From: Frankiales bacterium
GTDB lineage: Bacteria; Actinomycetota; Actinomycetes; Mycobacteriales; SCTD01
Assembly: GCA_025464915.1 (NCBI GenBank)
Contig: JAODNF010000341.1
Coordinates: 1 to 49,961, forward strand
Length of the DNA: 49,961 bases
Reading direction: 5' to 3'
Every line of letters starts with the position of its first letter. Position 1 is the stretch's first letter. This document shows positions 10,289 through 42,016 of the stretch, in pieces. The position numbers were made by a program, and so were the translations under genes. A model generated the notes under the pieces. It was not told the origin of the DNA and did not search any database. It saw only the letters and a program-made list of their open reading frames with translations.

Positions 10289-10291
10289 GGC

Positions 10292-16459: not shown

Positions 16460-16461
16460 GG

Positions 16462-19314: not shown

Positions 19315-19449
19315 GGCTCCTCCTCTTCTTCAGGAGGGGCGTCACGTTCGTCTGAATACCCGACGACCTGGTGCATCACGGGCGTACCTGACGTCTCTGA
19401 GGTTCTGGGGCCCGCGCATCGGTCCGGGCCTGGTGAAGGGGAGAGCCAC

Positions 19450-19713: not shown

Positions 19714-19723
19714 GCCCCCGCCG

Positions 19724-21012: not shown

Positions 21013-21170
21013 GCGGCCACCTCCTTGCGGTCCCGGCTCGTTTGGGCAGAGCGTGCCGTCGCCCGGCCTGATACGCCGACCAGGTCGCTGACGTAGTGCG
21101 GTCGCAGGGTCCCGACCGTCACCCGACGTGGCACGGTGCACCCACAGGTCCCGTCCAGAGCCGAGGTGCC

Positions 21171-24725: not shown

Positions 24726-25762
24726 GTGCTTTCCCTCGTGAGGTCACGGCTGGTGTCCGGCCACGTCCAGGCAGGCAGGTGCCCGGCGGCGATGGCCCGT
24801 ACCCGCGCCTGCCAGTCCGGCAGTGCGAAGCGGGATGCGTAGCGCCGCGCGGCCGCCGCGGCACCCGGGTAGCCGGCCAGCTCCACGACGGCGGCTGCGA
24901 TCGCCTCCGAACCTGCGGTCGCGGCGAGCAGGATGCCTGTCTCGCCCTGGGCGATCCCGAAGCGGCTTCCGCCGCAGTCGAGCACGACGGCCGGGCAGCC
25001 GAACGCAGCCGCCTCCAGGACGACCAGCCCGAGTCCCTCGTACTCGCCCTCTTCGTGGCGCGGCAGGAACAGCAGCGCCTCGGCGCTCGCGTAGAGCCGG
25101 TCCCGCTCGTGCTCGGCAACGGCCCCGTGGACGGCGATCCGGAGCTTCCGGTGCTCCTTCGTGGCGGCCAGCTGACGCAGCCGAGGCAGATCCGGGCCCG
25201 GGCCGACCACGTCGAGCCGGACGTCGCGCTGCGTGGCGAGGAGTGACGCGACCTCGATGGCTGTGTCATGGCCCTTCCTCGGGATCGCGCGCCCGACCGA
25301 CACCAGCCGGAGCTCCCCGCTGTCGCGTTCCTGGCCCTGACCGAGTGGGAGGGCGCCGGCCCGGATGGGCGGCCCCACCAGCTGCACGCGGCGCCGGACG
25401 TCAGGCGGAAGGAGCTGCGCGGCCATGGGACTGACGGCCAGCAGGACATCGCTGGTGTGGAGCGCCCGCGACCGGAGCAGCTGGTGCGCCCGGCTGCGAT
25501 CCCTCGTCAGCTCAGCACCGTGGAGCCACAGCACGCTCGGGCCCGGCAGCCGCGGATGGGTCGCGGTGACGAGGGCGTGGGTCTTCCACGTCAGGGACAT
25601 CCAGGTGGAGGGAGGACGGCGGGAGGCGACGATCCGACGCGGTCCGAGGTGGAGCTGCGCCCCGCAGGGTGACGCCGAGAGCGCCTGGTAGGCCGCGCTG
25701 GCCACCTGCTCGACACCACCGACCCCGTCGGCGGGCGCGTAGACCGCCACAGGCCCGCTCAC
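24722..25762 (-). CDS. GT4 (GT-B, family 1 group) glycosyltransferase
   Basis: The tail of ORF 24722..26740, starting at GTG 25762 (GTGA overlap with the upstream stop). Its own stop overlaps the dehydrogenase start as ATGA. E-x7-E region HEEGEYEGLGLVVLEAAAFGCPAV. Confidence 0.85.
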   Translation of the reverse strand: MSGPVAVYAPADGVGGVEQVASAAYQALSASPCGAQLHLGPRRIVASRRPPSTWMSLTWKTHALVTATHPRLPGPSVLWLHGAELTRDRSRAHQLLRSRALHTSDVLLAVSPMAAQLLPPDVRRRVQLVGPPIRAGALPLGQGQERDSGELRLVSVGRAIPRKGHDTAIEVASLLATQRDVRLDVVGPGPDLPRLRQLAATKEHRKLRIAVHGAVAEHERDRLYASAEALLFLPRHEEGEYEGLGLVVLEAAAFGCPAVVLDCGGSRFGIAQGETGILLAATAGSEAIAAAVVELAGYPGAAAAARRYASRFALPDWQARVRAIAAGHLPAWTWPDTSRDLTREST

Positions 25763-26529
25763 TCGTGCACCCGCTGCTTGACGGCAGTCAGCGGCCAGGC
25801 GGGGTTCAGGCCGCACCTCCGGACCTGGTAGCGCGACTGCCCCGCCAGGTTGCGCCCGGGAAGCGCTGTCACGCTGGACAGGTATCCCGCGTCGGCGATG
25901 AGGCCCAGCTCCCGCTCGCCGAAGTCGCTTCCCGGAAGGCCGTAGGGGATGGAGAAGTCCTCGACGCAGATGCCCAGCCGCTGCTCGAGCTCGTCCTTCG
26001 AGGCGACCACCTCGCTGCGCGCCTCGGCATCGCTCAGCTCGATGAGCCGCCGGTGGGTCACGCTGTGCGAGCCGATGCGCATCCCTGCTGCGACCAGCGC
26101 GGCGCAGTCGGCCCAGGTCAGCTGCGTCTGGCTGTCGCCGGTGACCACCTTGTCCGTGGTGACGAAGAAGGTGGCGGGGAGGTTGCGCTCCTGCAGCAGC
26201 TGCAGCACGCTCTGCGCCCACTCCTTGTGACCATCGTCGAACGTCACGCTGAAGGTAGGGACCTCGAGCGGCGCGGGCCCGGCCAGGGCGATGAGCGCCT
26301 CCGGCCAGGACAGGAAGCGGCCACGGTCGAGCAGCGCGTCCAGGTGAGCCAGCAGGTTGCGCTCGTACCGTCCGGCGACGTCGTGGTACAGCACGACGTG
26401 CAGCCCGCCGCGGCGGTGCGGGAGCCGATGGCGCGCCCCCGCCGGTGCGACGAGGGACCCCTGCAGCTGCGGCCGGGCCCGCAACCACGCCCGCGGCCCG
26501 GGAAGGGCGGTCGCGAAGTGCGGGGACAT
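25759..26529 (-). CDS. Polysaccharide deacetylase (NodB homology / CE4)
   Basis: ORF 25759..26661 trimmed to ATG 26529. NodB motif 1 FSVTFDDGHKE and motif 2 IGSHSVTH. Confidence 0.8.
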   Translation of the reverse strand: MSPHFATALPGPRAWLRARPQLQGSLVAPAGARHRLPHRRGGLHVVLYHDVAGRYERNLLAHLDALLDRGRFLSWPEALIALAGPAPLEVPTFSVTFDDGHKEWAQSVLQLLQERNLPATFFVTTDKVVTGDSQTQLTWADCAALVAAGMRIGSHSVTHRRLIELSDAEARSEVVASKDELEQRLGICVEDFSIPYGLPGSDFGERELGLIADAGYLSSVTALPGRNLAGQSRYQVRRCGLNPAWPLTAVKQRVHE

Positions 26530-26794
26530 CAGCCGCTGCTCGCCTCTCGGCCTCGGGCGGACTGGCACGCCACGGTCTCCTCGCGTCGCGCTCGTTCCCG
26601 GCGGGTGGTCGGGTCCGGCAGCGAGATGCTGTCCGAGGCCGGCAACGCGCACAGCCCACAACTGCCCTAGTCCTGTGCCGACGCGCCCGGGGATGTATCT
26701 GGGTCACGGTTGTCGGCTCTTGCAAGGGCAGGGGACGCACCCGTCAGCCCCGGCCCGCGGCAGGCTGTCGCCTCCATGACCTCCGAGGGGAGCG

Positions 26795-27496
26795 ATGGCG
26801 TCCCATCCCGAGATCCTCGCGATCCGCCGCTATGCCCCGGCCGTGCTGGCCTGCGTCCTGCTGGGTACGGGCGCCGGCGGGGCGCTGGTGGTGCTGACCC
26901 CGAAGCAGTACGAGTCCCGGGTCGTCGTCTTCGTCGCCGCGGCCAGGACGCCCGACGGCGGGAGCGTCTACGACCGGGCGCTGTTCGCCCAGGACCGCGT
27001 CCGCTCCTACGTCCCGCTCGTCGCCAGCCCGCTGGTGATGGACCGGGTGGCGCGCTCCCTGCAGCTCACCGAGTCGCCCCTCGAGCTCGGCACGAAGCTG
27101 ACGGTGACGGCGGCGCCGGACACGGTGCTCCTGAGCATCACCGTCCGCGAGAGCACCCCCCGGCTGGCACAGCTCGTCGCCAGCGAGACCGCACGCCAGT
27201 TCACGGCTTTCGTCACGACTCTGGAGGGGGAGTCCGGCGGGGCGCCGACGGTCTCGCTGACCGTGACCCGGCCCGCTCAGTTCGAGGCAGCGGCCGTGCT
27301 GCCCCGAAGGGGGCTCGACCTGTGGCTCGGTGCGTTCCTGGGGGGCGCACTAGGCATGGTCGTCACGGCACTGAGACGGAGGTGGGCGGTCGCGACCGAG
27401 CCCGCGGACAGGTCGCCCTCCGTGGAGGAGGTCACGGCGACGGCGCTCGTGTCACACCCGGTCCGGCTCCCCGAGGTCCGTGTGGTGGAGCCGTGA
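26795..27496 (+). CDS. Wzz-like polysaccharide chain-length determinant (no kinase domain)
   Basis: 233 aa. N-terminal TM (VLACVLLGTGAGGALVVL), then TPKQYESRVVVFV, a periplasmic-type domain and a C-terminal TM (LWLGAFLGGALGMVVTAL). SD GAGGGGAG. Confidence 0.65.
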   Translation: MASHPEILAIRRYAPAVLACVLLGTGAGGALVVLTPKQYESRVVVFVAAARTPDGGSVYDRALFAQDRVRSYVPLVASPLVMDRVARSLQLTESPLELGTKLTVTAAPDTVLLSITVRESTPRLAQLVASETARQFTAFVTTLEGESGGAPTVSLTVTRPAQFEAAAVLPRRGLDLWLGAFLGGALGMVVTALRRRWAVATEPADRSPSVEEVTATALVSHPVRLPEVRVVEP

Positions 27497-28476
27497 GCCG
27501 CCCCGGCCGGGTGCTCGTCGTGGGTCCGTCGTGCGTGGGGGAGATGGCCTGGTTCCTCGCGCTCGGCTACCGCCGGCTCGGCTGGCAGGTCGCCCGCGTG
27601 TCGGACCGGGCGTTCATCGGACGTGGTCTGCCGGGTCTGGTCGGGAAGGCCGTGCAGCTCACCGAGCGCGATCACCGTCTGACCAGCAGGTCCCGCAAGC
27701 TCGGCGAGCTCGTCCGCGAGCGGGCTCGGGGCTGTGACCACGTGGTGACCGTGAAGGGGGAGTACTTCCTCCCGGAGGACGTGGCGGCGATCAACGCCGT
27801 CGCCCCGATCGTCAACTGGCACCCCGACCACCCGGTGATCGCTCAGAACTTCGCCTGCATCCCCTACTACACGGCGTTCTGCCCCAAGGACTCCTGGAGC
27901 ACGGCTCGGCTGCGCGCCATGGGTCACCTCAACGTCAGCACCCTGCCGCACGCCTCCGATCCCCTCGTCCTCGGGTCCGACCGCTCGGCCTTCGCCACTA
28001 CCGGCTTCTCCGTGGTGGGCACCGGATATGCCTACCGCCAGCACTGGATCGACGAGGCCCGTGGGGTGGGCTTGGACGTGCGGCTCTGGGGGACTTCCAG
28101 AACCCCCCGCGAGCTCCGGGACCGCACTCAGAAGGCCAAGGCGGTGGGTCCCGACCAGGGCAAGGCGCTGCGCAGCGGCTTCTTCACGCTGAACACGCAT
28201 CACCCCTACGACATCGCAGGGGGGAACCAGCGGGTGTTCGACGCGGCTGCTGCGGGGGCCCCGCAGCTCACCGAGTGCCTTCCGGAGACTGTCCGGCACT
28301 TCCTCCCGGGCGAGGAGATCGCCACCTTCGCCGACCGCGACGAGTTCGTCGCCCAGGTCAAGGAGCTCTCCGCCGACGCCGCGCTGCGCGGCCGGCTCTC
28401 GGCGAACAGCCTGGAGCGGGTCCGGGCGGAGCACACCTACGAGCACAGGGTGCAGAGCATCCTGTCGATGCTGTGA
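27493..28476 (+). CDS. CgeB-like glycosyltransferase (Glyco_trans_1_2 / DUF3880 type)
   Basis: The tail of ORF 26710..28476, starting at GTG 27493 (GTGA overlap). C-terminal signature GGNQRVFDAAAAGAPQLTE ... FLPGEEIATFADRDEFVAQV ... RVRAEHTYEHRVQSIL. Confidence 0.7.
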   Translation: MSRPGRVLVVGPSCVGEMAWFLALGYRRLGWQVARVSDRAFIGRGLPGLVGKAVQLTERDHRLTSRSRKLGELVRERARGCDHVVTVKGEYFLPEDVAAINAVAPIVNWHPDHPVIAQNFACIPYYTAFCPKDSWSTARLRAMGHLNVSTLPHASDPLVLGSDRSAFATTGFSVVGTGYAYRQHWIDEARGVGLDVRLWGTSRTPRELRDRTQKAKAVGPDQGKALRSGFFTLNTHHPYDIAGGNQRVFDAAAAGAPQLTECLPETVRHFLPGEEIATFADRDEFVAQVKELSADAALRGRLSANSLERVRAEHTYEHRVQSILSML

Positions 28477-29492
28477 GCGTCCTCACCCTCCGACGCGTGA
28501 ACCTGACCGAGGTCGACTGGGAAGCGCTGGACGGGTTCCCGGACAGGGTGCTGTTCCAGCGCCGGCCGTGGCTGGAGTTCCTGGAGCGGAGCCACGGGGC
28601 CGAGCCCGTGGTGGCTGAGCTGCGCTCGGGCGGGCAAGCCTGCGGGTGGTTCACCGGACTCGTGACCAGGCACCTGGGTCTGCGCGTCCTGGGCGCTCCG
28701 CGACCGGGCTGGACGACGCCCTACCTCGGGTTCAACCTGGCCCCGGACGTCTCGCGCAGGGAGGCGCTCATGGCGCTGCCCTCCTTCGCGTTCCACGGCC
28801 TCGGGTGCGTGCACCTCGAGGTGTGCGACCGGTGGTGCCTGCCGGCTGACCTTGCCGGCCTGGGGGGCCGGAGGTCGGACACGAAGACGTTCGTCGCCGA
28901 CCTCCGGCCTGATCTCGACCAGCTCGCTGCCCGGATGACCAGCGGCACGAGGCAGAACCTGCGCAAGGGAGTGCGGGCCGGGCTGCTCGTGGAGGACGCC
29001 GCGCCGGAGGGCTTCGCTGCGGAGTACTACCAGCAGCTCCGGGACGTCTTCGCGAAGCAGGGCCTGTCGCCCTCCTACCCGGAGAGCCGCGTGGAGGCAC
29101 TGATCGAGGGTTTGTACCCCACCGGAGCTCTCCAGCTGGTCCGGGTGCGGACGCCGGAGGGGATGTCCATCGCGACCGGGATCATCCTGGGTGCCGGCCG
29201 GTCTGCGTACTTCTGGGGCGGCGCGAGCTGGAGGGAGCACCAGCACCACCGGCCCAACGAAGCGCTCTTCTGGTATGCCTTCCGGACCTGGAAGGGCCGC
29301 GGTGCCGAGGAGTTCGACTTCGGCGGCGGTGGCACCTACAAGCTGAAGTACGGGGCGGTCGAGCTGACGGTCCCGAACCTTCGGTGGTCGCGGTGGCCGG
29401 GCATCGAGACCGCGCGTGGCGTGGCGAAGGCGACGACGCGCGCGCGTCAGCGCACGCCGGTCATGACCGGGGCAAGACGCCAGACGGGGTGA
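28473..29492 (+). CDS. FemAB-family / GNAT-fold (Acetyltransf_6-like) transferase
   Basis: The tail of ORF 28275..29492, starting at GTG 28473 (GTGA overlap). Features: FQRRPWLEFLE, the pair of acyltransferase-like halves, and NEALFWYAFRTWKGRGAEEFDFGGGG near the C-terminus. Confidence 0.7.
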   Translation: MSVLTLRRVNLTEVDWEALDGFPDRVLFQRRPWLEFLERSHGAEPVVAELRSGGQACGWFTGLVTRHLGLRVLGAPRPGWTTPYLGFNLAPDVSRREALMALPSFAFHGLGCVHLEVCDRWCLPADLAGLGGRRSDTKTFVADLRPDLDQLAARMTSGTRQNLRKGVRAGLLVEDAAPEGFAAEYYQQLRDVFAKQGLSPSYPESRVEALIEGLYPTGALQLVRVRTPEGMSIATGIILGAGRSAYFWGGASWREHQHHRPNEALFWYAFRTWKGRGAEEFDFGGGGTYKLKYGAVELTVPNLRWSRWPGIETARGVAKATTRARQRTPVMTGARRQTG

Positions 29493-29527
29493 CGACGCGG
29501 GCTGGGCCGCGTGGTCACCCCGTCTGG
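29480..29527. terminator. Strong bidirectional hairpin between convergent genes
   Basis: CCAGACGGGGTGAC (29480-29493) pairs perfectly with GTCACCCCGTCTGG (29514-29527). After one G-G mismatch, ACGCGG pairs with CCGCGT around the 6-nt loop GCTGGG, giving 20 bp in total. It sits in the 50-nt gap between stops at 29492 and 29543. Confidence 0.6.
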
Positions 29528-29542
29528 TCCGGGCGGGAGGCT

Positions 29543-31306
29543 CTAGTGGCCGCCCTCGTAGGCGCCGATGTCCATCGCGGAGCCCTGCGGGCGGGGTGCT
29601 CCGTCGAGGTCGTACGCCGGGGCCTGCTGGGTGGTGCCCTTGTCGATGGCCGGGCTCGTGGTGCGGACGTGGTAGTCGCCCGTGCCGGTCGGGTTGTAGC
29701 TGACGAACTGCGGGTCGGCCGACACGGTCCCGGTGGGCACGCCACCGCCGTTGACGTCGTAGCTGCCCGAGGCGTTGCCGTAGACCAGGTTGTTCGCGTA
29801 GGTGTTCACGCCCACGCGGCCCATCTCCCGGATGCCCCAGTAGCCGTTGTTCACGACGATGTTGTTGTTGACCACGGTGCCGCTGTCCGTGCCGGGCGCG
29901 ATGTCGTTGCCCTCGAGGGAGCCGCCGATCACCATGCCGCCCTGGGAGTTCTGGAACACCGTGTTGTTGGCGATCATGACGTGGTTGGCGTTGTGCCAGA
30001 GGTGGATGCCCCAGCCGCTCGTCCGGTAGACGATGTTGTCGAGGATGCGTCCACCGTTGGGGCCCTGGTAGTAGATGCCGTGGATGAGGCCGCAGTCGCT
30101 GGTCGGCGCCATGATGTCGTGGATGACGTTGCCGATGGAGTCGACGTTGGTCTCGGAGTAGTTCTGCAGCTCGATGCCCGCACCGCCGCGCGAGCAGTCC
30201 GGCGGCACCATGTTGTGGATGTGGTTGCCGAGGAACCGGTCGTTCGACGCGGTCGACATGATGCCGCTGTACTTCGAGCCGCTGAGGTCGAAGTTCTGGA
30301 TCACGACCCAGTCACCGGTGTTCGTCCAGGCGTTGGTGCTGCCGGGCGCGCTGATCTTCGCGCCCCACTTGGTGTCGGAGACGAAGGTGATGGGTGCGCT
30401 GGACGTCCCGCTCGTGGTCGACTCGACGTAGCCGTAGCTGCCGGGCGCGACGTGGACGACCGTCCCTGCGGTCGCCACGGAGGCGGCCCTGCTGACCTGG
30501 CGGAACGGCGCGGCGCTCGTGCCGGGGTTGCTGTCGCTACCGGTGGGCGAGACGTACAGCGCCTTCGTGCCGGTGACCGGCCAGGGGCTGGTGGTGGCCA
30601 CGGCCGTCGCGGTGGGGGATGCCGTCGGTGCGGCCGTGGGGGCGGTAGTGGGTGCCGTGGTCGGTGCGGTGGTCGGTGCGGTGGTCGGGGCGGTGGTGGG
30701 GGAAGCGCTGGGCGTCGCGGCCGGCGCACTGGTCGGGGACGTGGTGGACCCGGACGGGGTCGTCGCGACGACCTCGATCCCGTTGATCTTGGCGTTGTCC
30801 GCGGTGGCGCTGAAACCGAGGTCGAGTGTGCTGTCGGTGCTGCGCACCGGGAGGGTGACGTCGTATGCGGTGTTCGCACCGATGGTCTTGACGAGGTCGA
30901 GGTCGGGCACGACGGTCTGGCCCTCGGCCGTGACCGAGAAGACCCGGGTGCCGGCGGTGGTCGCCCACGACTCGCTCATCCGCAGCGTCAGCTTGTAGAT
31001 CCCGGCGCTGGGCAGCGGGATCTTGTAGGCGCTCATCCCGTACCGCTCGGTCTGGTAGATCTTCGGATCGGCGGTACCGGAGGTCGTCGAGGTGAAGGAC
31101 GCGGCGGTCCCCCCGACGTAGTACTGGTCGGCCTGCCAGGCATGGCCGGCGCTGTCGGTGTAGGCCGGTCCGCCGGCGTTGATCCGCAGCGCCCACAGGG
31201 ACGCAGCGGCGGGGGTGGCTCCGGCGGCCAGCGCGGAGGGGAGTGCGCCGGCCGCAGGCAGGATCACGAGCGGGAGGGCGCACAGCGCGGTGGTCTTGAG
31301 GCGCAT
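29543..31306 (-). CDS. Secreted malectin-domain / Pro-Thr linker / right-handed parallel beta-helix protein (candidate polysaccharide lyase, hydrolase or epimerase)
   Basis: 587 aa. Signal peptide MRLKTTALCALPLVILPAAGALPSALA. Malectin-like block (RINAGGPAYTDSAGHAWQADQYY ... YKLTLRMSE ... FSVTAEGQ ... INGIEVV). Linker (APTT)n. Beta-helix block with repeated N/G-rich rungs (GIHLWHNANHVMIANNTV, VVNNNIVVNNG) and an ending DIGAYEGGH. Confidence 0.8.
   Translation of the reverse strand: MRLKTTALCALPLVILPAAGALPSALAAGATPAAASLWALRINAGGPAYTDSAGHAWQADQYYVGGTAASFTSTTSGTADPKIYQTERYGMSAYKIPLPSAGIYKLTLRMSESWATTAGTRVFSVTAEGQTVVPDLDLVKTIGANTAYDVTLPVRSTDSTLDLGFSATADNAKINGIEVVATTPSGSTTSPTSAPAATPSASPTTAPTTAPTTAPTTAPTTAPTAAPTASPTATAVATTSPWPVTGTKALYVSPTGSDSNPGTSAAPFRQVSRAASVATAGTVVHVAPGSYGYVESTTSGTSSAPITFVSDTKWGAKISAPGSTNAWTNTGDWVVIQNFDLSGSKYSGIMSTASNDRFLGNHIHNMVPPDCSRGGAGIELQNYSETNVDSIGNVIHDIMAPTSDCGLIHGIYYQGPNGGRILDNIVYRTSGWGIHLWHNANHVMIANNTVFQNSQGGMVIGGSLEGNDIAPGTDSGTVVNNNIVVNNGYWGIREMGRVGVNTYANNLVYGNASGSYDVNGGGVPTGTVSADPQFVSYNPTGTGDYHVRTTSPAIDKGTTQQAPAYDLDGAPRPQGSAMDIGAYEGGH
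30625..30708 (-). repeat. In-frame 12-nt tandem repeat encoding the (A-P-T-T)n linker
   Basis: Seven consecutive 12-mers of the form TCGGTGCGGTGG and variants on the plus strand. The reverse complement CCACCGCACCGA encodes PTTAPTTAPTTAPTTAPT inside CDS 29543..31306. Confidence 0.8.
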
Positions 31307-31422
31307 CGGGGGATCTCCAGGGGGTATCGGGGGGCTACCTCCCTGGGTTTCGACGGCACGCCAAAATTGCTGAACCGAGATGCACGAAGAAGTTTCGACG
31401 CACTGCTCGTGGGGCGACGCGC

Positions 31423-32547
31423 CTACCGCGCTCCCTCGTAGGCGCCGATGTCGAAGCCCCCGCCCGCCGGACGCGCCGCGCCGTCGAGGTCGTCCGCGGG
31501 CGCGCCGAGGCGGCTACCGCTGTCCAGCGCGGGGCTGCCGTCGCGCAGGTGGTAGTCGCCGTTCTGCGGATCGACGAACGCCGGGTCGCCGGACACCCGC
31601 ACCTCGGGCACGAAACCGCCCTTGAGGCGGTAGTCGCCCTGGGCGTTGCCGTGACTCAGGTTGTCGACGTAGGTGTTGGTGCCGACGCGACCCACCTCGC
31701 TGATTCCGGCCTGGCCGTTGCCGGCGACGAGGTTGTTGGTGACCAGCACGTCCGAGGCGATGCCCGGCGCGACGTCGTTCCCCTCGAACGACCCGCCCAC
31801 GGCGATGCCGCCTCGAGCGTTTCCCACGACGGTGTTGTTGGTGATGGCGATCCTGCTCGCGTTGTGCCAGAGGTGGATCCCCCAGCCGCTGCAGCCGACC
31901 ACCAGGTTGTTGACGATCCGACCGCCGTCGGCGCTCTGGTAGTAGATGCCGTGCACCCGTGCGCAGTTGCCCGGGGCCCGCACGCGCTCGACGACGTTGC
32001 CGGCCGTCGTGTTGTCCGTCGCGACGTAGCTCTCCACGACGATCCCGGCGCCGCCGCGGGAGCAGTCGGGGGCGACGATGTCGTGCACGTGGTTGCCGGT
32101 GAAGCGGCCGTGCGAACCGGTTGACAGCAGGCCGTTGTAGGTCGAACCGCTCAGGTCGAACCCCTCCACCTGCACCCAGTCCCCTGTGTTGGTCCAGGCC
32201 GTGGTCGCCCCCTCAGCGAGGACGCGTGCGTCCCAGCGCTGGTCCGAGCGGAACACGATCGGTGCGTCCGGGGTCCCGCTCCGTGACGTGACCACCGGGA
32301 GGTAGTTCCCGGGTGAGACGTGCACGAGGGTGCCCGCTCTCGCGAGGACGGCGGCCCGGCGCACCTCCCGCACCGGCCTCGCGGAGGTCCCCGGGTCGCT
32401 GTCCAGGCCCGCCGGCGAGACCCAGAGCTGCGCCCGCACGACCTGATGCGGCGAGGTGCTCGTCGACGGGCTGGGCCGGGTGCTCGCCCGGCAGCCCACC
32501 AGCGCGAGTGCCAGCAGGGCCGCCGTGCCGACTCCGTGGTGCGTCAC
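31423..32547 (-). CDS. Lipoprotein with right-handed parallel beta-helix domain (paralog of the C-terminal half of 29543..31306)
   Basis: 374 aa. Lipoprotein signal TAALLALALVGC. Shares blocks with its neighbour: PDCSRGGAGI, VHGIYYQ, SGWGIHLWHNA, GGSFEGNDVAPG and FDIGAYEGAR. GTG 32547 overlaps the Wzx stop as GTGA. Confidence 0.8.
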   Translation of the reverse strand: MTHHGVGTAALLALALVGCRASTRPSPSTSTSPHQVVRAQLWVSPAGLDSDPGTSARPVREVRRAAVLARAGTLVHVSPGNYLPVVTSRSGTPDAPIVFRSDQRWDARVLAEGATTAWTNTGDWVQVEGFDLSGSTYNGLLSTGSHGRFTGNHVHDIVAPDCSRGGAGIVVESYVATDNTTAGNVVERVRAPGNCARVHGIYYQSADGGRIVNNLVVGCSGWGIHLWHNASRIAITNNTVVGNARGGIAVGGSFEGNDVAPGIASDVLVTNNLVAGNGQAGISEVGRVGTNTYVDNLSHGNAQGDYRLKGGFVPEVRVSGDPAFVDPQNGDYHLRDGSPALDSGSRLGAPADDLDGAARPAGGGFDIGAYEGAR

Positions 32548-33788
32548 AGGCTGGTCTTTACGGCGGGCTGGGAGCTCCGCTCGCCTGCCGAGGTGGACCG
32601 GTTGACGAGCACGAGCCCGAGGGCGGTCGCCAGCACCTCACCCGTCAGCAGCGCAGCCGGCATGGCCCACGGTCGTTGGTCGGTGAGCCTTCCGACCAGC
32701 GCGGCGAGCACGAGCGCCGGAGCGACCAGGTTCATCAGGATGCGCCGGACGTCGCCGAAGGACGCGATGAGCTCGATCTCCACGAGGTACTTGGGACCCC
32801 ACACGACGAGCAGGGCTGCGCCGAGCAGGACGTAGCCCCCGTGGCCGGAGAAGGTGGCGCCGACGAGCGCGGTGCTGACGTGCGGCCACAGGGCCGCACC
32901 GACCAGCAGCCCCGACAGCGGCGGCAGCCCAGCGGCCAGGACGTAGCGTCCCTGGACGCGCCGGCCCTCGTCCTCGCGGCGCCGCGCGACCAGGCGTGGC
33001 AGCGCGTTGTGCAGCAGCAGCCACAAGGCGTTGGCGGCTGCGCCTGAGGCCCGCAGCCCGAGGGCGAAGGCCCCCGCGGCAGCGGGGTTCGCCGCGGTCA
33101 TCGTCGCGAGCGCCAGCGGGGTCGCGAGCTGGCCGCCGGCGCCCGAGGCGCTGAACAGCAGCGAGGTCCGCAGGTGGTAGCGCCACGCCGACCAGCTGCC
33201 CTCCCAGGCCGGGAGGCAGCCGGCCCGCTGGAGCGCCACCAGGGCCACGACCGCCCCGAGCAGCGGCGACAGCCCGAACGCCAGCGCGTCCAGGTCGCTG
33301 CGCCCCGCGGGGACCGCGAGCACCGCGACCAGGAAGCCAGCGGCGACTGCCCAGTTCGCCACCCCGAGGGCCCACAGCTGCCCGCGCGCGCGCAGCCACC
33401 AGTCGGGGAACAGCGCGTAGCAGAGCAGGTAGGGCGACATCGCGAGCACGAGCCGGCCCGATCCGCTGCTGAGGTCCGTCGCCGTCAGGAGCACGCCGGC
33501 GACCGTCGCGGTCACGAGCAGCGACAGCGCGAGGTAGAGGCTGAAGATCTCGCTGCCGAGCCGGCGCTGCTGGTCGCCGGTGGTGGCCGCCAGAGTGCGG
33601 ATCGAGTAGCCCGCCTGGCCGAGGTCCACGCCCCACCAGGCGTAGCCGATCCAGCTCAGGGCCACGGCGTACTCGGCGAACTCGGGCGCGCCGAGACGTC
33701 GTGCCAGGAGGACGACGGTCGCGAACGAGACGAGCTTCGGCAGCCAGTCGGCCAGCAGCGTCATGACGGCCGTGCGACGCATCTGCAT
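32544..33788 (-). CDS. Wzx-type flippase (MOP / polysaccharide biosynthesis protein family)
   Basis: ORF 32544..34031 trimmed to ATG 33788 (MQMRRTAVMTLLADWLPKLVSFATVVLLARRLGAPEFAEYAV). About 12 or more TM helices throughout. Confidence 0.8.
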   Translation of the reverse strand: MQMRRTAVMTLLADWLPKLVSFATVVLLARRLGAPEFAEYAVALSWIGYAWWGVDLGQAGYSIRTLAATTGDQQRRLGSEIFSLYLALSLLVTATVAGVLLTATDLSSGSGRLVLAMSPYLLCYALFPDWWLRARGQLWALGVANWAVAAGFLVAVLAVPAGRSDLDALAFGLSPLLGAVVALVALQRAGCLPAWEGSWSAWRYHLRTSLLFSASGAGGQLATPLALATMTAANPAAAGAFALGLRASGAAANALWLLLHNALPRLVARRREDEGRRVQGRYVLAAGLPPLSGLLVGAALWPHVSTALVGATFSGHGGYVLLGAALLVVWGPKYLVEIELIASFGDVRRILMNLVAPALVLAALVGRLTDQRPWAMPAALLTGEVLATALGLVLVNRSTSAGERSSQPAVKTSL

Positions 33789-33837
33789 CCTCCGCGTGCG
33801 CTTGGCGTCCTCCTCGTGAGAGCCATCGGGCAGCGGC

Positions 33838-33862
33838 CTGATACGAGGTCGCGCTGTATCAG
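33838..33862. promoter_or_regulatory. Inverted repeat CTGATAC-N11-GTATCAG in the divergent Wzx / GNAT promoter region
   Basis: Perfect 7-bp arms at 33838-33844 and 33856-33862, in a relatively AT-containing stretch of the 145-nt divergent intergenic region. Confidence 0.3.
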
Positions 33863-33933
33863 CGAACACCGGGGGGGCTCGTAACAGGGGGCAAGGGCGA
33901 TGGCCGGGGTGCCGCGACCGTTCGGGAGGGTCC

Positions 33934-34665
33934 GTGCACGTCGATCGCAGGTCCAGGAGCACCAGCAGCCTCACCCGGGCTGCGCGCCGGGTGGCATGCG
34001 TCCACCGCTTCGACATCCTCGGCCGGTCCACCGCGGAGACGGTCCCCGACGCCCGGTCGGAGGACTACGGGGTCCAGCGGCTGACCAGCCTGGAGGACCT
34101 GCTCCGGGACGCCGACGGCGAGCACGACTCCCGGGCCCTGGACGCGCTCAAGCGCATCGCACCGATCCGACGAGCCCTGCAGGCCCGGCGGGCGCGACGC
34201 CAGGCGGCCCGCTTCGCGCAGGGCGACGTGGCCTACGTGGCGACGCAGGACGGAGCAGTCGCGGCCTGGGCGTGGGCCAGTCAGGCTGCCACGTTCCACT
34301 GCCGCTGGAGCGGCCTGCGCTTCCGGCTCGCGACCGATGAGGCCTACCTCTACGACCTCTGGTGCTTTCCCGCGCACCGCCGGACAGGCGCGGGAGTCGT
34401 CGTGATGCGGGCGTTGATGGCAGATCTGCACAGCAGGGGGGCCGCACGGGTCTACGGCTACGTGCTGCAGGACAACCGGGCGAGCCAGGTCCTGCACCGG
34501 CTCGTCCTCGGATTCGAGCAGGTGCAGGTGGTGAGCAGCCTGCGGGTCCTCAGCCACTGGGCCTGGCAGCTGCCGCGGGTGGGCCCTCAGCAGAGTGGGC
34601 CGTGCACGAGCAGGCGCGGCGGCGGGGCTGCCCGGTCCCTGGCTGACGGCCGGCGTGCCGCGTGA
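33934..34665 (+). CDS. GNAT-family N-acyltransferase
   Basis: 243-aa ORF; the true start may be internal. GNAT motif A region YLYDLWCFPAHRRTGAGVVVMRALMADLHSRGAARVYGYVLQDNRASQVLHRLVLGFEQV. Confidence 0.6.
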   Translation: MHVDRRSRSTSSLTRAARRVACVHRFDILGRSTAETVPDARSEDYGVQRLTSLEDLLRDADGEHDSRALDALKRIAPIRRALQARRARRQAARFAQGDVAYVATQDGAVAAWAWASQAATFHCRWSGLRFRLATDEAYLYDLWCFPAHRRTGAGVVVMRALMADLHSRGAARVYGYVLQDNRASQVLHRLVLGFEQVQVVSSLRVLSHWAWQLPRVGPQQSGPCTSRRGGGAARSLADGRRAA

Positions 34666-35642
34666 CTGCGATCGCCGAGAAGCGCGGACCCCTCGACTTC
34701 GACGCCGAGGTGGTGACCGAGAGGCTGGTCGCAGGCATCCGGCGGGCCGTCCGCGACCTGGGTCGCAGGGGAGCGGTCGTGGCGGTGTCCGGGGGGGTCG
34801 ACTCCGGTGTGGTCGCGGCGCTCTGCGCACGCGCCCTCGAACCGCATCGCGTGCTGCTGCTGAGACTGCCCGAGGCAACGTCCGGCAACCGGTCGTCGCT
34901 GCTCGGGCTCGAGCTGGCTGCCCGCCTCGGGACCCCCACACGCGAGGAGCCCATCGGTCCCGCGCTCGCGGCGCTCGGCTGCTACGCGCAGCAGGACGAG
35001 GCGGTGCGAGCGGTGTTCCACGACTACCAGCCCGGCTGGCCGTTCAAGCTCGTGAGGTCGCGACCCAACGGGTCGCCGACGGTGTTCTCCCTGGTCGTCG
35101 AACGGCCCGGCGGTCGACGTGAGGCGCGACGGATGCCGGCCGCGGCCTACCGGCTGCTGCTCAGCGCGACGAACACCAAGCAGCGGATCCGGACCGTGGT
35201 CAGCTACACCTGGGCTGACCGGCTGCACGCCGCCGTGGCGGGGACACCGAACCTCGTCGAGTACGACCAGGGCTTCTTCGTCAAGGGCGGCGACGGCCTG
35301 TCGGACGTGAAGCCCATCGCCGGCATGTACAAGCAGCAGGTCTATGCCCTGGCCAGGCACCTGCGGCTGCCTGAGGCCATCGCGGGACGTGCGCCCACGA
35401 CGGAGACCTTCTCGCTGCACCAGTCGCAGGAGGAGTTCTACTTCGGCTTCCCCATGGCGCAGATGGACCTCATCCTCTGGGGAGAGCGGCACGGGATCGC
35501 GGTGAACGAGCTCGCTGCCCGGGGCCGCATGTCACGGGAGGACGTGGCCCTGGGCTATGCCGAGGTCGTGCGCAGGCGGACCGCCACCGCCTACCTGCAC
35601 GCGGCACCGGTCCTCCTCGACGACGTCGCACCGCCGACCTGA
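34662..35642 (+). CDS. NAD synthetase (NadE)-like PP-loop ATP pyrophosphatase / amidotransferase, no glutaminase domain
   Basis: 326 aa. GTG 34662 overlaps the GNAT stop as GTGA. PP-loop VAVSGGVDSGVVAAL. NadE-type block TPNLVEYDQGFFVKGGDGLSDVKPIAGMYKQQVYALARHLRLPEAI ... PTTETF. Confidence 0.8.
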   Translation: MTAIAEKRGPLDFDAEVVTERLVAGIRRAVRDLGRRGAVVAVSGGVDSGVVAALCARALEPHRVLLLRLPEATSGNRSSLLGLELAARLGTPTREEPIGPALAALGCYAQQDEAVRAVFHDYQPGWPFKLVRSRPNGSPTVFSLVVERPGGRREARRMPAAAYRLLLSATNTKQRIRTVVSYTWADRLHAAVAGTPNLVEYDQGFFVKGGDGLSDVKPIAGMYKQQVYALARHLRLPEAIAGRAPTTETFSLHQSQEEFYFGFPMAQMDLILWGERHGIAVNELAARGRMSREDVALGYAEVVRRRTATAYLHAAPVLLDDVAPPT

Positions 35643-37606
35643 TGTGCGGCATCGCGGGGATCGTCCGCGCCGGGCCCGGTCGTCCGGTCGAGGAGCCGGC
35701 GCTGCTGCGGATGGCAGCGTCCCTGCGGCACCGGGGGCCGGACGGGTTCGGCCTCGCGCGGGGTCAGGCGGTGGGTCTGGTCTCGACCCGGCTGGCCATT
35801 CTCGACCTGTCCCACGGCTGGCAGCCGATGCGGTCGCAGGCCGGGTCGGTCCTGGTCTACAACGGCGAGGTCTACAACCACGCGGAGCTGCGGGCGGAGC
35901 TGTCTCGCGAGGGCGCGAGCTTCCGCACCCGGACCGACACCGAGGTCGTGCACGCGATGCTGGACCGGCGCGGGCTCGACGCGCTGGCTGCCTTCAACGG
36001 CCAGTTCGCGCTCGGGCTCTGGGAGCCGGACGACCAGCGGCTGACCCTGGTCCGCGACAGGTTCGGCGTCCGCCCGCTGCACTACGCGCTCACGGCACGC
36101 GGCGACCTGGTCTTCGGCTCCGAGGTGACCGCGGTGCTCGCGTCTGGGGAGGTCTCGGCTGCGCCGGACCTGGAGGGCATCGACGACGTCTTCACGACCT
36201 GGGGCCCTCGACCGCCTCGCAGCGCCTTCCGGGGCATCGGGCAGCTGCGACCGGGCGGCGTGCTGGTCTGGGAGCGCGGCCGGATCGTCCGCGAGGGGCT
36301 GTGGTGGCGGCCGGACGTGGCCTGCCGGGACGCCGAGCCGACCACCGACCTCGGTGACCTGCTTCGCAGCAGCGTCGGGCTCCGGTTGCAGGCGGACGTG
36401 CGGGTAGGGACGTACCTCTCGGGCGGGCTGGACTCGAGCCTGCTCACCGCGCTCGCACGCGAGGTCATCGGGCCCGACCTGCGGACGTTCTCCCTGGCCT
36501 TCGAGTCCGCGCAGTACGACGAGAGCGCGGCGCAGCAACGGGTGGCCGGTTTCCTGGGCACGCAGCACCATGTGCTCCACATCAGCGCGCGGGACATCGC
36601 GGCGGGCTTCCGCGACGCGGTGCTCCACGCAGCCACGCCCCTGGTGCGGACAGGCCCGGTGTGCATGGCGCAGCTCGCCAGGTTCGCCCGAGAGCACGGG
36701 GTCACGGTGGTCGCGACCGGAGAGGGCGCAGACGAGCTCTTCTGGGGCTACGACGTGTTCAAGGAGGTCTTGGCGCGCCGGGCCTACCTCCGCGACCCGG
36801 AGCTGACCAGCGCCTTCGACGACCTCTACCCGCACCTCGGGCACCGAGCGCGGGGCCCGGGTTGGCAGCACGCGTTCGCGGCTGCGGGCCCCGCGGACGA
36901 CCCGCTGTTCTCGCACCAGGTGCGGATGCGCGCGACCGGGTCGGTCGCGGCGCTCTACGCCCCCGACGTGGTCGCAGAGCTCGACGGCCAGAGCTCGCGG
37001 GAGCGCCTCCGGCGGTCGCTGCCACCGGAGTTCACGGGCTGGACCGATCTGCAGCGGACGACCTGGCTCGAGCTGCACACGCTGCTCGAGCCCTACCTGC
37101 TCGCCGCGCAGGGTGACCGGGCCGCGATGACGCACGGCGTCGAGGGCCGCTACCCGTTCCTCGACCACCGGGTGTTCGACCACGCCATGAGCCTGCGGCC
37201 GGACCGCAAGCTGCGTGGGAGCCAGGACAAGGCTGTGCTCCGCGAGCTCGCCGCATCGGTGCTGCCGGCCGAGATCACGAACCGGCGCAAGCAGCCCTAC
37301 CGCGCCCCCGAGGTGGCACCGTTCGTCGGACCGGACGCGCCGGAGTGGGTGCAGGACTCTCTGACCCCGACGGCCGTCCGCGCAGCCGGCCTGTTCGACC
37401 CGACCCGGGTCGAGGCCCTGATGGTCCGGTGCGGTGGGGGACGGGCGCTCGGTCAGCGGGAAGCGATGGCGTTCGTCGGGGTGCTGTCGACGCAGGTGTG
37501 GTCGGAGCAGCACTTCGGGGCGGGCGTCGTGGCGCCCGAGCAGGAGGCGAGACGGCCGAGGGTGTTCCTCGAGCTGGATGACGAGAGAGCAGAGGCCACA
37601 GCATGA
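35642..37606 (+). CDS. Asparagine synthase-like glutamine-dependent amidotransferase (AsnB family)
   Basis: 654 aa. N-terminal nucleophile MCGIAGIV, YNGEVYNHAELR, and PP-loop YLSGGLDSS. The start overlaps the upstream stop (TGATG). Confidence 0.9.
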   Translation: MCGIAGIVRAGPGRPVEEPALLRMAASLRHRGPDGFGLARGQAVGLVSTRLAILDLSHGWQPMRSQAGSVLVYNGEVYNHAELRAELSREGASFRTRTDTEVVHAMLDRRGLDALAAFNGQFALGLWEPDDQRLTLVRDRFGVRPLHYALTARGDLVFGSEVTAVLASGEVSAAPDLEGIDDVFTTWGPRPPRSAFRGIGQLRPGGVLVWERGRIVREGLWWRPDVACRDAEPTTDLGDLLRSSVGLRLQADVRVGTYLSGGLDSSLLTALAREVIGPDLRTFSLAFESAQYDESAAQQRVAGFLGTQHHVLHISARDIAAGFRDAVLHAATPLVRTGPVCMAQLARFAREHGVTVVATGEGADELFWGYDVFKEVLARRAYLRDPELTSAFDDLYPHLGHRARGPGWQHAFAAAGPADDPLFSHQVRMRATGSVAALYAPDVVAELDGQSSRERLRRSLPPEFTGWTDLQRTTWLELHTLLEPYLLAAQGDRAAMTHGVEGRYPFLDHRVFDHAMSLRPDRKLRGSQDKAVLRELAASVLPAEITNRRKQPYRAPEVAPFVGPDAPEWVQDSLTPTAVRAAGLFDPTRVEALMVRCGGGRALGQREAMAFVGVLSTQVWSEQHFGAGVVAPEQEARRPRVFLELDDERAEATA

Positions 37607-37872
37607 CGACCGTCGTTCCAGGTGTGCAGGTGCGCGAAGAGCTGCGCGCCTTCGTCGTCGAGAGCTTCCTCTACCTTCATCCCGACCTCGAGCTGAAGGA
37701 CGGCGACGACCTCCTCGCCCTCGGCGTCATCGACTCGCTCGGCTTCGTCGAGCTCGTCGAGCAGGTGGAGTCCCGCCTGGGTCTCCGCGTCAAGGACGTC
37801 GACATCACGGGGGAGAACTTCGGCTCCATCGACGCCATGGTCGCCTTCGTGGGGTCCCACCGGAGCCCCTGA
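37603..37872 (+). CDS. Acyl/peptidyl carrier protein
   Basis: 89 aa. The phosphopantetheine attachment Ser is in LGVIDSLGFVELVEQV. ATGA overlap with the AsnB-like stop. Confidence 0.85.
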   Translation: MTTVVPGVQVREELRAFVVESFLYLHPDLELKDGDDLLALGVIDSLGFVELVEQVESRLGLRVKDVDITGENFGSIDAMVAFVGSHRSP

Positions 37873-39371
37873 TGACCTCGGTCAAGGACGACCTCATCGC
37901 CAGCGCAACTGCCCGTCCCTCGCACCTCGCCGTGGCCGACCGGGGGCAGCGACTCACCTATGGAGCGCTGCTGCGGAGGGCGTCGTGCCTGGCCCGCCGC
38001 CTGGGCGAGTGCGGCGTGAAGCGTGGGGACCGGGTCGCGATCGTCATGCACAGCGGGGTCGAGTGCGCTGTCACGATCTACGCGACCACCATCGCGGGAG
38101 CGTGCTTCGTCGTCCTCGACGCGACGACGCCCCAGGACCAGCTCGTCGCCCTGCTGACCACGACCCGTGCCAAGGCGGTGGTCTGCGACGCCGCTGCCGG
38201 CCCGCGGGTGCGGGCCGCCGCTCAGGGCGTCACGCCCGTGCCCGTGGTCGTGACGGGCCTCCCGCCGGGGAGTGCAGCACCGGGCGACCAGCAGGTGTGG
38301 CAGCGGTACGGTCCGGCGCTCATCTCCACCGATCTGGCAGCGATCGTGTTCACCTCGGGATCCACCGGAGTTCCTCGTGGTGCGACGTTCCTGCACCGCA
38401 ACCTGACGTTCGTGACGTCCTCGGTGCTGGGCTATCTCCCGCTGACCGCCGAGGACCGGATCCTCTCGGTGCTGCCCCTGTCCCACACGTACGGCCTCTA
38501 CCAGCTCCTGCTGTCGGTGCGACTGGGAGCGACGCTGCACCTGCGACCCGGGGCCGGACCCGTCGGCGGCATCCTGCGAGACCTCGAGGACGAGGCCATC
38601 ACGGTCCTGCCCGGCGTTCCCGCGCTGTGGCAGCTGTTCCGTTCGACAGAGGTCGCATTCCCCGCGGTCCGGTTGCTCAGCAACGCCGGTGCTGCCCTGC
38701 CTGCGGACCGCATCCCCGACCTGCAGCGCATCTTCCCGCACGCGAGCCTCTATGCGATGTACGGCCAGACGGAGTGCGCCAGGGTCGCGTTCCTGCCGCC
38801 CGAGCTGCTGGCCTCTCATCCCGACTCGGTCGGCGTCGCCGTTCCCGGGACCCAGGCATGGCTGGAGGACGAGCACGGCCGTGAGCCGGCGTTCGGCGGC
38901 ACGGGGGAGCTGGTCGTGCGGGGGGAGCACGTCATGCAGGGCTACTGGGACGACGAGGAGGCGACCAGGCGCAAGCTGGTGCCTGGTCGCTGGCCGGGTG
39001 ACAGGGTGCTGCGCACCGGCGACATCTTCCGGCGTGACGCGGACGGCTACCTCTGCTTCGTGGCCCGGCACGACGACGTGATCAACATCGGCGGCCAGAA
39101 GGTCGCCCCGCTCGAGGTCGAGCGAGTGCTGTGCGCGGCACCCGGCGTCGTCGAGGCCGTGGTGGTCGGGACGGCTGACGGCTCGCGCGGGCAGGTGATC
39201 GTCGCCCACGTCGTCGCTGCACCGGGTGCGGTCCTGGACGCGCGGGCGCTCAAGCGGCACTGCGCGGAGCGCCTCGAGGCGAGCAAGGTGCCTCGCGAGG
39301 TCGTGCAGCACCAAGCCCTGCCCCGGCTGAGCAGCGGGAAGGTCGACCGCAAGCGGCTGGTCCTCTCCTAG
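37872..39371 (+). CDS. ANL-superfamily adenylating enzyme (AMP-dependent synthetase/ligase)
   Basis: The tail of ORF 37434..39371, starting at ATG 37872 (TGATG overlap). Core motifs IVFTSGSTGVPRG, MYGQTE, LRTGDIF, DDVINIGGQKVAPLEVE and SSGKVDRK. Confidence 0.9.
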   Translation: MTSVKDDLIASATARPSHLAVADRGQRLTYGALLRRASCLARRLGECGVKRGDRVAIVMHSGVECAVTIYATTIAGACFVVLDATTPQDQLVALLTTTRAKAVVCDAAAGPRVRAAAQGVTPVPVVVTGLPPGSAAPGDQQVWQRYGPALISTDLAAIVFTSGSTGVPRGATFLHRNLTFVTSSVLGYLPLTAEDRILSVLPLSHTYGLYQLLLSVRLGATLHLRPGAGPVGGILRDLEDEAITVLPGVPALWQLFRSTEVAFPAVRLLSNAGAALPADRIPDLQRIFPHASLYAMYGQTECARVAFLPPELLASHPDSVGVAVPGTQAWLEDEHGREPAFGGTGELVVRGEHVMQGYWDDEEATRRKLVPGRWPGDRVLRTGDIFRRDADGYLCFVARHDDVINIGGQKVAPLEVERVLCAAPGVVEAVVVGTADGSRGQVIVAHVVAAPGAVLDARALKRHCAERLEASKVPREVVQHQALPRLSSGKVDRKRLVLS

Positions 39372-41527: not shown

Positions 41528-42016
41528 CTAGAAGTCGCCCGCTCCGCGACGGAGGTCCTCCAGCACGTTGACGAGGGTGGTGACGCGGCGGGCGGAGAGC
41601 CCCGGCTTGCCGAAGACCTCGGTGTTGAGGGCCTCGGTGGCTTTCAGGGCAGTACGCCGACCGGTGGTCGTGACAGCGATCAGCGTCGCGCGCCCGTCAG
41701 TGGGGTGAGGTGACCTCGACACGAGGCCGGCCGCCTCGAGGCGGTCCACAGCGTTGGTGATGGAGGTGGGGTGCACCTGCAGGCGCTCGGACGCCTTCTT
41801 GAGCGGCATCGAGCCGCGGCTGCTGAAGTGCAGCAGCATCAGCAGCTCGTACCTCGCGAAGGTGAGGTCGAACGGCTTGAGCACCTCATCGACGCGGGCC
41901 TGGAAGATCTGCTGCGCGCGCATCACCGAGGTGACGGCGACCATCCCCTCGGCCGCGTCGAACCAGCCCTCGCGCTCCCAGTTCTCGCGCGCGAGGGAGA
42001 TCGGATCCCTAGACAT
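41528..42016 (-). CDS. MarR-family transcriptional regulator
   Basis: ORF 41528..42397 trimmed to ATG 42016, which overlaps the IcmF stop by 8 nt (ATGTCTAG). Winged-helix block LTFARYELLMLLHFSSRGSMPLKKASERLQVHPTSITNAVDRLEAAGLVSR. Confidence 0.85.
   Translation of the reverse strand: MSRDPISLARENWEREGWFDAAEGMVAVTSVMRAQQIFQARVDEVLKPFDLTFARYELLMLLHFSSRGSMPLKKASERLQVHPTSITNAVDRLEAAGLVSRSPHPTDGRATLIAVTTTGRRTALKATEALNTEVFGKPGLSARRVTTLVNVLEDLRRGAGDF

Follow-up and report, generated by a model that had tools for sequence, protein, structure and literature searches.

Introduction

The described system closest to the genes considered here lies on pSymB of Sinorhizobium meliloti, where genes for an AsnB-like amidotransferase, an acyl carrier protein (ACP), an AMP-forming ligase and a NadE-like protein are adjacent and co-oriented, in that order (8151-12942 of locus L099). 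We take these four genes to be the operon asnB-smb20651-smb20650-nadE1 of Ramos-Vega et al. 2009, the ACP of which is said in that work to become acylated with fatty acids in E. coli. The gene smb20650 is cotranscribed with the ACP gene smb20651 and co-expression of the two yields acylated SMb20651, and FadD is not replaceable by SMb20650 (PMC7232532); the function of SMb20651 has been stated to be still open (PMC5686131). A search of the literature with the four enzyme names combined returned nothing relevant. Here a copy of this four-gene cassette is described from a stretch of 49,961 nucleotides, called the window below, which is one contig (JAODNF010000341.1, our C90) of an actinobacterial metagenome-assembled genome (MAG) assigned to the Frankiales (GCA_025464915.1; 3.8 Mb in 501 contigs, 92% complete). 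The interval of interest, 25759-39371, is probably best read as the distal half of a Wzx/Wzy surface-glycan locus together with a copy of the mobile NadE/AsnB/ACP/ligase cassette, for which a mechanism of acyl decoration is proposed below, and not as a collection of the accessory families that go with exosortase A (XrtA) and PEP-CTERM proteins.

Other known systems bear on parts of the cassette. The D-alanylation of teichoic acids by DltA/DltC and the placing of glycine on Vibrio lipid A by AlmE/AlmF/AlmG resemble it at the family level, in that a free-standing adenylating enzyme charges a small carrier protein of its own, from which a transferase passes the group to a polymer of the cell envelope. 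Those systems are without amidotransferases and load alpha-amino acids, for which the window ligase seems ill suited at one substrate-binding position (see below), and no MBOAT or DltD-type transferase is encoded in the window. The VinN/VinL-type beta-aminoacyl/acyl-ACP loaders of polyketide starters provide the best stand-alone structure matches of the ligase (3wvn, 205 bits; 7dq5, 176 bits), but sequence identity is modest and there are no polyketide synthase genes in the window. AsnB homologues of the OxyD type amidate the malonyl starter unit, and so are a precedent for AsnB homologues working on thioester-tethered carboxylates.

The cassette and its distribution

With a GC content of 72% in the window the plain list of open reading frames (ORFs; 179 in all) was unusable, and genes were therefore called by a frame analysis of codon-position GC (GC3) and named with Pfam and NCBIfam models (Table 1). 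Successive cassette genes, all on one strand (34662-39371), overlap by 1 or 4 nt at their start and stop codons, that is they are translationally coupled, and the NadE-like gene is itself coupled on either side, to the small GNAT gene that opens the operon and to the AsnB-like gene. Sequence motifs, as read from the translations and from an alignment of NadE-like proteins (A1), are intact throughout: the DSL serine of the ACP, Cys2 and SGGLDS of the AsnB-like protein, SGGVDS in the NadE-like protein, which keeps the core NadE motifs, and TSGSTG...YGQTE...GKVDR in the ligase. The best solved-structure matches of the ligase are adenylation domains of non-ribosomal peptide synthetases (NRPS) and stand-alone ACP-loading enzymes. 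At the position of the alpha-amino-binding Asp235 of alpha-amino-acid adenylation domains the window ligase has a Thr, and a carboxylic acid other than a classical alpha-amino acid is for this reason the more likely substrate. An aspartate-type or beta-amino-acid substrate, as the similarity to VinN might suggest, was considered and not adopted in view of the same Thr.

The window and pSymB operons share the same four protein families, at identities of 46% for the NadE-like protein, 42% for AsnB, 42% for the ligase and 35% for the ACP. In a tree of 79 ligases, which included the seven other paralogues in the MAG from the superfamily of acyl-CoA synthetases, NRPS adenylation domains and luciferases (ANL), the window ligase falls in a 34-row clade with SMb20650 (support of 95 in the Shimodaira-Hasegawa-like approximate likelihood ratio test, SH-aLRT). 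The operons differ in gene order, which is AsnB-ACP-ligase-NadE in S. meliloti and NadE-AsnB-ACP-ligase in the window, and also in their accessory genes, since the rhizobial counterpart comes with a GNAT-like protein of about 370 residues and a HemK-like methyltransferase whereas the window has its small GNAT.

The NadE-like alignment, within which identities are 61-71%, served as the query for cassette loci in a species-representative genome collection, and the family was found at 587 genome loci at least, in Actinomycetota, Pseudomonadota, Acidobacteriota, Myxococcota, Planctomycetota, Bacteroidota, Chloroflexota and Elusimicrobiota. Ligase homologues are about 50% identical across phyla, and genes for the NadE-like, AsnB-like, ACP and ligase proteins recur together around them. 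The window NadE-like protein is 61-84% identical to the cassette copies with which it was compared, and AsnB-like proteins show 41-74% identity within the cassette. Across a comparison set of 86 loci the NadE-like gene is the most conserved member, being present in 84, followed by the ligase (73), ACP (68) and AsnB (66). Actinomycetota have the order NadE-AsnB-ACP-ligase and other phyla mostly AsnB-ACP-ligase-NadE, and that the four genes stay linked through such rearrangement argues for a shared pathway. The NadE-like family is nevertheless rare and patchy within a phylum, with a match at E<=1e-30 in only one of 400 other Actinomycetota genomes sampled, and rhizobial megaplasmids often carry the cassette (116 plasmid records). 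Judged by these comparisons, the cassette appears to be a mobile four-gene unit spread over many phyla.

A gene of the GNAT fold adjoins the cassette in at least 32 of the 86 loci, which divide into 28 with members of a family of about 350 residues and at least four with a small GNAT of the window type. Homologues of the window GNAT, 43-57% identical to it, hold the same position in four loci (L010, L012, L014 and L141). The family of about 350 residues has no Pfam match and a weak GNAT signal in some members, occurs in several phyla and lies mostly 0-500 bp from the cassette (for example at L024:8829-9890 and L098:13009-14124), and is a candidate fifth cassette component. Homology between it and the small GNAT of the window was entertained and rejected, the hhalign probability being only 33%.

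Two relatives depart from the usual make-up. An ACP-ligase pair 40-47% identical to that of the window sits in a different kind of cluster in Duganella sp. FT92W (L009:8294-16585), along with a glutamine-synthetase-like gene, FemAB_like (PF04339), DegT, a WelO5-like protein and an NRPS module, and there neither the NadE-like nor the AsnB gene is present. In a Thiomonas MAG (L060:7111-9702) the ORF of a cassette-type ligase runs to 863 residues, about 350 over the usual length, and tblastn finds no AsnB or ACP gene nearby; a fusion is one possibility here, a reduced variant another.

Link to the surface-glycan locus and a proposed mechanism

In the window the cassette operon diverges from a gene for a Wzx flippase, beyond which lie glycosyltransferase, deacetylase and chain-length genes, and the genes at 9638-13473 form a PglF/PglE/PglC-like trio. 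The same divergent arrangement of Wzx and GNAT-cassette is seen in another Frankiales MAG locus (L014). A further case is the 14 kb locus L141, in which a GNVR protein, GT2, GT4, Wzx, Acetyltransf_6, GNAT, the cassette, Wzy_C and a deacetylase are encoded in a single co-directional glycan operon with the cassette embedded in it. In L013 the cassette stands between Wzx, beta-helix and GT2 genes on one side and Acetyltransf_6 and Bac_transf genes on the other, and the Acetyltransf_6 protein encoded beside the cassette ligase there is 49% identical to that of the window. Among the 86 loci deacetylase-like genes are found in 14 and Acetyltransf_6-like genes in about 14. The window locus and L141 are among the clearer cases in which the cassette forms part of what looks like a complete Wzx/Wzy glycan operon, one predicted to produce a 4-amino sugar but lacking a dedicated N-acetyltransferase, and loci of this kind offer a concrete and testable acceptor hypothesis.

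The carrier protein of the cassette is probably the site at which an acyl group bearing an amide is assembled, and this group would then be transferred to the glycan. As a first step the ligase would adenylate a carboxylic acid and attach it through a thioester to the dedicated carrier protein, a reaction seen so far for the S. meliloti pair only, as acylated ACP on co-expression. The AsnB-like and NadE-like enzymes, both ATP-dependent, would then turn the free carboxyl or carboxyls of the tethered unit into carboxamides, as the chemistry of their families suggests. Finally the GNAT of the operon or the Acetyltransf_6 protein may pass the completed group to an amine in the repeat unit. As acceptor, a 4-amino-dideoxy-HexNAc (HexNAc, N-acetylhexosamine) made by the PglF-like and PglE-like enzymes would be the most economical choice, and such a sugar is plausible in this role given that the window encodes no PglD-type acetyltransferase. 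The fully specified version, in which a carboxamide-bearing acyl group built on the carrier protein is attached by the GNAT to the 4-amino group of the PglF/PglE-made sugar, is put forward tentatively, as a possibility that we would not ourselves bet on. Were it true, a new carrier-protein-dependent route to N-acyl decoration of surface glycans would be added, working with or without exosortases, and the name NAD(+) synthase given to one of its genes would probably be a mis-annotation.

Several observations weigh against a glycan role. Stand-alone copies of the cassette, lacking any glycan gene inside 10 kb, are found in L010, L012 and a plasmid of M. ciceri, and the genes directly beside the cassette vary greatly from locus to locus (127 Pfam families in 115 neighbouring genes). 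The Acetyltransf_6 protein of the window is not picked up by a profile made from the Acetyltransf_6 proteins found next to the cassette elsewhere. The AsnB-like protein, as the only AsnB homologue of the MAG, could conceivably have a housekeeping role. Further, the AsnB homologues of other O-antigen loci (WbpS, WbtH) are thought to amidate uronic acids without a carrier protein, and the window does encode a UDP-sugar 6-dehydrogenase, whose presence implies a uronic acid in the polymer. The glycan link of the cassette is not obligatory.

Taken to its end, this line of thought would have the cassette independent of the glycan locus altogether, making a free amide-bearing lipid or small molecule such as an N-acyl amide, with its place beside wzx the outcome of a mobile-module insertion. 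The stand-alone copies, the heterogeneous neighbourhoods, the patchy distribution in the phylum, the related ACP-ligase pair in the Duganella small-molecule cluster and the fatty-acid acylation reported for the S. meliloti ACP in E. coli all lean this way. However, glycan genes recur near the cassette in several lineages, comprising Wzx, Wzy_C, Bac_transf and GT2/GT4 genes as well as the deacetylase and Acetyltransf_6 genes counted above, and in L141 the cassette lies inside the glycan operon rather than next to it, so that we regard full independence as unlikely and keep to decoration of a surface glycan as the preferred reading.

Relation to the XrtA/PEP-CTERM accessory families

An earlier note, made from the sequence of the window, had proposed that the window carries the accessory gene set typical of XrtA loci for exopolysaccharide (EPS), with one member of each of eight classes but no exosortase; if the subfamily relationship held, these genes would be orthologues of the XrtA set (ligase, amidotransferase, FemAB, deacetylase, GNAT, chain-length determinant and sugar transferase) uncoupled from the exosortase. 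All eight classes are indeed present where it placed them, as Pfam and NCBIfam matches confirm, and the same broad enzyme classes do occur together in XrtA loci; its inventory was right for these classes but left out the NadE-like gene, the GT4 and Glyco_trans_1_2 genes and Wzx. The proposed subfamily relationship fared worse, since no protein tested reaches the relevant TIGRFAMs cut-off. The ligase scores 331.2 bits against TIGR03098 (cut-off 592.35), which is nonetheless its top NCBIfam model, and the FemAB-like protein 30.5 bits against TIGR03019 (cut-off 260), its sole NCBIfam match. With these two exceptions the XrtA models are also outscored by generic ones: the AsnB-like protein gives 342.5 bits with TIGR03108 (cut-off 816.9) against 418.8 with TIGR01536; for the deacetylase four other deacetylase models score higher than TIGR03006 (20.8 bits, cut-off 276); and the sugar transferase gives 128.9 bits with TIGR03013 (cut-off 393) against 164 with TIGR03025, which is also under its own cut-off. 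The GNAT has no match to TIGR03103, nor the chain-length protein to TIGR03007.

Genuine members of the families score two to three times higher. In 201 genomes of the class containing Nevskia, taken as positive controls for XrtA, TIGR03098 proteins were found in 23 at 631-819 bits and TIGR03108 proteins in 27 at 819-1119 bits; in one control locus (L115) a TIGR03098 ligase of 781 bits adjoins a TIGR03099 decarboxylase (632 bits) and TIGR03097. The window has no TIGR03099 decarboxylase, and nothing anywhere in the MAG scores above 169 bits (contig C61; cut-off 478). Conversely, ten genuine TIGR03098 loci contain no NadE-like gene, cassette-type AsnB or cassette-type ACP within 10 kb, and a profile of cassette ACPs gave a single weak match in them, so that the dedicated ACP which the earlier note had listed as a feature of XrtA loci was not borne out as one.

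The phylogenies that the earlier note had called for give a divided answer. For the ligase, TIGR03098 and the cassette ligases together are separated from the seven other ANL paralogues of the MAG (SH-aLRT 100), and TIGR03098 (100) groups with that cassette sub-clade in which the window ligase and SMb20650 lie (99), so that here a relationship to an XrtA family does hold, with the window ligase, among the models and paralogues compared, nearest to TIGR03098. The tree in fact shows TIGR03098 nested inside the cassette ligases, but the approximately unbiased (AU) test does not reject monophyly of the cassette (p=0.10), for which reason only close kinship is claimed. For the AsnB-like protein it fails: identity to genuine TIGR03108 proteins, which form their own clade, is 30-33%, well below that within the cassette, and the window protein is on the cassette side of a split supported at 100.

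In the MAG itself a whole-genome search found no exosortase-like protein over cut-off, as the earlier note had supposed. Exosortase_EpsH has no match in it, TIGR04178, for the exo/archaeosortase core, scores 13.7 bits at most (cut-off 23), the PEP-CTERM models give nothing over cut-off, and rhombosortase reaches at best 42 bits against 84, which is the level of a generic rhomboid and is seen in all 14 control genomes as well. The MAG is therefore likely to be exosortase-free within the limit of its 92% completeness. It has two ordinary sortases, both on contigs other than the window. Both beta-helix proteins of the window are, as had been stated, without a PEP-CTERM or LPXTG tail, their C-termini reading ...AYEGGH and ...AYEGAR; export signals are found at the N-termini, a signal peptide on one and the lipobox LVGC on the other. 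Near the genuine TIGR03098 loci tblastn with the Nevskia exosortase returned no match, and the Pfam model was used for exosortase searches because exosortases are too divergent for tblastn.

Exosortases were then surveyed in 55 genomes that carry the cassette. None of the 15 actinobacterial-type carriers has one and 21 of the 40 others do, leaving 34 of 55 without; in the 201 control genomes, which represent one proteobacterial class, the figure is 62 (31%). About 50% of the carriers among Gamma- and Betaproteobacteria have an exosortase as against this baseline, but the sample is small and the genomes related, and hence no enrichment is claimed. Physical linkage does occur. In an uncultured deltaproteobacterial MAG an exosortase-family gene (L056:8454-9191; PF09721, 44 bits, cut-off 25.7) is directly upstream of, and on the same strand as, a series of NadE-like, AsnB, ligase, HemK-like methyltransferase and ACP genes, and in an Elusimicrobia locus (L062) an exosortase of 216 bits is encoded 7.6 kb from the cassette. 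Exosortase loci can thus include the cassette, which in most cases lies elsewhere.

The exosortase genes beside the cassette in L056 and 7.6 kb from it in L062, the clade that the ligase shares with TIGR03098 and the two XrtA models that come first for the ligase and FemAB-like proteins are what could be said for XrtA orthologues uncoupled from their exosortase. Set against the cut-off tests, by which the idea is largely refuted, the separate AsnB lineages and the mutual absence of NadE-like gene, cassette ACP and TIGR03099 from the two kinds of locus, they leave it improbable. By their scores, the window proteins do not belong to the XrtA/PEP-CTERM accessory families, the ligase alone appearing as close kin of one, and the locus is a generic surface-glycan cluster with an already-known cassette and not an exosortase-linked set. 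That decoration chemistry is separable from the exosortase is true in the sense that most cassette genomes surveyed have none, but for a different gene set that had already been described. The exosortase angle consequently adds little, given that the genes are not of XrtA families and the cassette is already common in exosortase-free genomes. Nor is an uncultured actinobacterial MAG the useful model that the earlier note saw in it: S. meliloti carries the cassette, is exosortase-free and is genetically tractable, and is for these reasons to be preferred.

The NAD(+) synthase annotation

The cassette copy on the M. ciceri plasmid is annotated in generic terms, as asnB, acyl carrier protein, class I adenylate-forming enzyme and nadE 'NAD(+) synthase'. 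The last label is placed on the cassette NadE-like gene by the Prokaryotic Genome Annotation Pipeline (PGAP) in three Mesorhizobium plasmids (for example L098:11953-12960), and arises because the gene passes PRK00876. A canonical NadE is encoded elsewhere in the MAG (contig C433, 223 bits, a frame of 587 residues), which is why the cassette gene is probably not the NAD synthetase of the cell; tblastn found no further NadE-like match in the MAG. This separate NadE, and the fixed linkage to ACP, ligase and AsnB, suggest that such genes are probably misnamed systematically. As for AsnB, a tblastn search of the MAG at E<=1e-10 finds no family homologue besides the cassette gene. It is very improbable that the NadE-like and AsnB-like genes are merely a housekeeping NAD synthetase and asparagine synthetase flanking an ACP/ligase pair by chance, even with PRK00876 and TIGR01536 above their cut-offs, the PGAP name and the want of a second AsnB homologue, since the four genes remain linked across many phyla despite changes of order, are translationally coupled in the window, and include a NadE-like family rare in the phylum alongside a canonical NadE in the same genome. 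What seems of lasting value is the widespread mobile cassette itself, one gene of which is annotated by PGAP as an NAD synthase.

Gene content of the window

The genes of the glycan locus and of the cassette operon are collected in Table 1. The product of 22127-23488 is no more firmly placed than as a candidate Wzy polymerase, going by its hydrophobic segments, and for the Wzz-like protein, which stays under the cut-offs of both models, the two TM segments speak in favour of the assignment. The DapB_N/DAP_DH_C-like dehydrogenase gene that follows the ligase is absent from other cassette loci and has three paralogues elsewhere in the MAG, and so is outside the conserved cassette.

Table 1. Glycan-locus and cassette genes of the window, in order of position (TM, transmembrane)
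Position	Strand	Product	Evidence and remarks
9638-10288	-	Small phosphoglycosyl transferase, Bac_transf catalytic domain only, 216 aa	Passes Pfam Bac_transf cut-off; initiating enzyme
10292-11626	-	DegT/PglE-type sugar aminotransferase	PF01041, 391 bits
11500-13473	-	Polysacc_synt_2 (PglF/WbpM/CapD-type) membrane UDP-HexNAc 4,6-dehydratase	PF02719, 348 bits
21096-22166	+	GT2 glycosyltransferase	PF00535, 70 bits
22127-23488	+	Candidate Wzy polymerase, about 11 predicted TM segments	GC3 frame, no Pfam match, hydrophobic segments
23460-24725	-	UDP-sugar 6-dehydrogenase (UDPG_MGDP_dh family)	PF03721, PF00984, PF03720
24722-25768	-	GT4 glycosyltransferase	GC3 frame; PF00534 and PF13692, about 81 bits
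25759-26661	-	Polysaccharide deacetylase, generic Polysacc_deac_1	PF01522, 78 bits
26795-27496	+	Wzz/CpsC-like chain-length protein, two TM segments, no kinase domain	Below cut-off: PF02706 21.9 vs 25.5 bits, TIGR01006 39.8 vs 296
~27481-28476	+	Glyco_trans_1_2 (CgeB-like) glycosyltransferase-like protein	PF13524, 83 bits
28473-29492	+	Acetyltransf_6/FemAB-like acyltransferase	PF13480, 52 bits
29543-31306	-	Secreted protein: malectin domain, Pro/Thr linker, right-handed beta-helix	PF11721, PF13229, DUF1565; signal peptide
31423-32547	-	Lipoprotein beta-helix paralogue, 56% identical to helix part of the 29543-31306 protein	
32544-33854	-	Wzx flippase, Polysacc_synt, at least 8 TM segments, divergent from cassette operon	Passes Pfam cut-off
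33934-34665	+	Small GNAT acyltransferase, first gene of the operon	PF00583, 37 bits
34662-35642	+	NadE-like PP-loop ATP pyrophosphatase, SGGVDS motif, insert of about 55 residues	PRK00876, 377 bits vs cut-off 313
35642-37606	+	AsnB-like glutamine amidotransferase, N-terminal MCGI nucleophile, SGGLDS PP-loop	TIGR01536, 419 bits, above cut-off
37603-37872	+	Carrier protein (ACP), SMb20651 type, 89 aa, DSL phosphopantetheine site	PF00550
37872-39371	+	AMP-forming ligase of the SMb20650 type, presumed to charge the carrier protein	PF00501, 247 bits
39373-40440	+	DapB_N/DAP_DH_C-like dehydrogenase, 2 nt past the ligase gene	

The glycan locus is split by a regulatory block at 13500-21150, with genes for a sigma-70-family factor, three to four LuxR-type regulators, a histidine-kinase ATPase and a PAS-GGDEF-EAL protein. 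At one end of the window a bacterial serpin (3265-4551; PF00079, 217 bits) adjoins a GH25 lysozyme with LGFP repeats (1927-3249). Towards the other end a protein of 1049 residues encoded at 42009-45158 fuses B12-binding, MeaB GTPase and methylmalonyl-CoA-mutase parts in an architecture of the IcmF type, and genes for an acyl-CoA dehydrogenase and a 3-hydroxyacyl-CoA dehydrogenase come after it.

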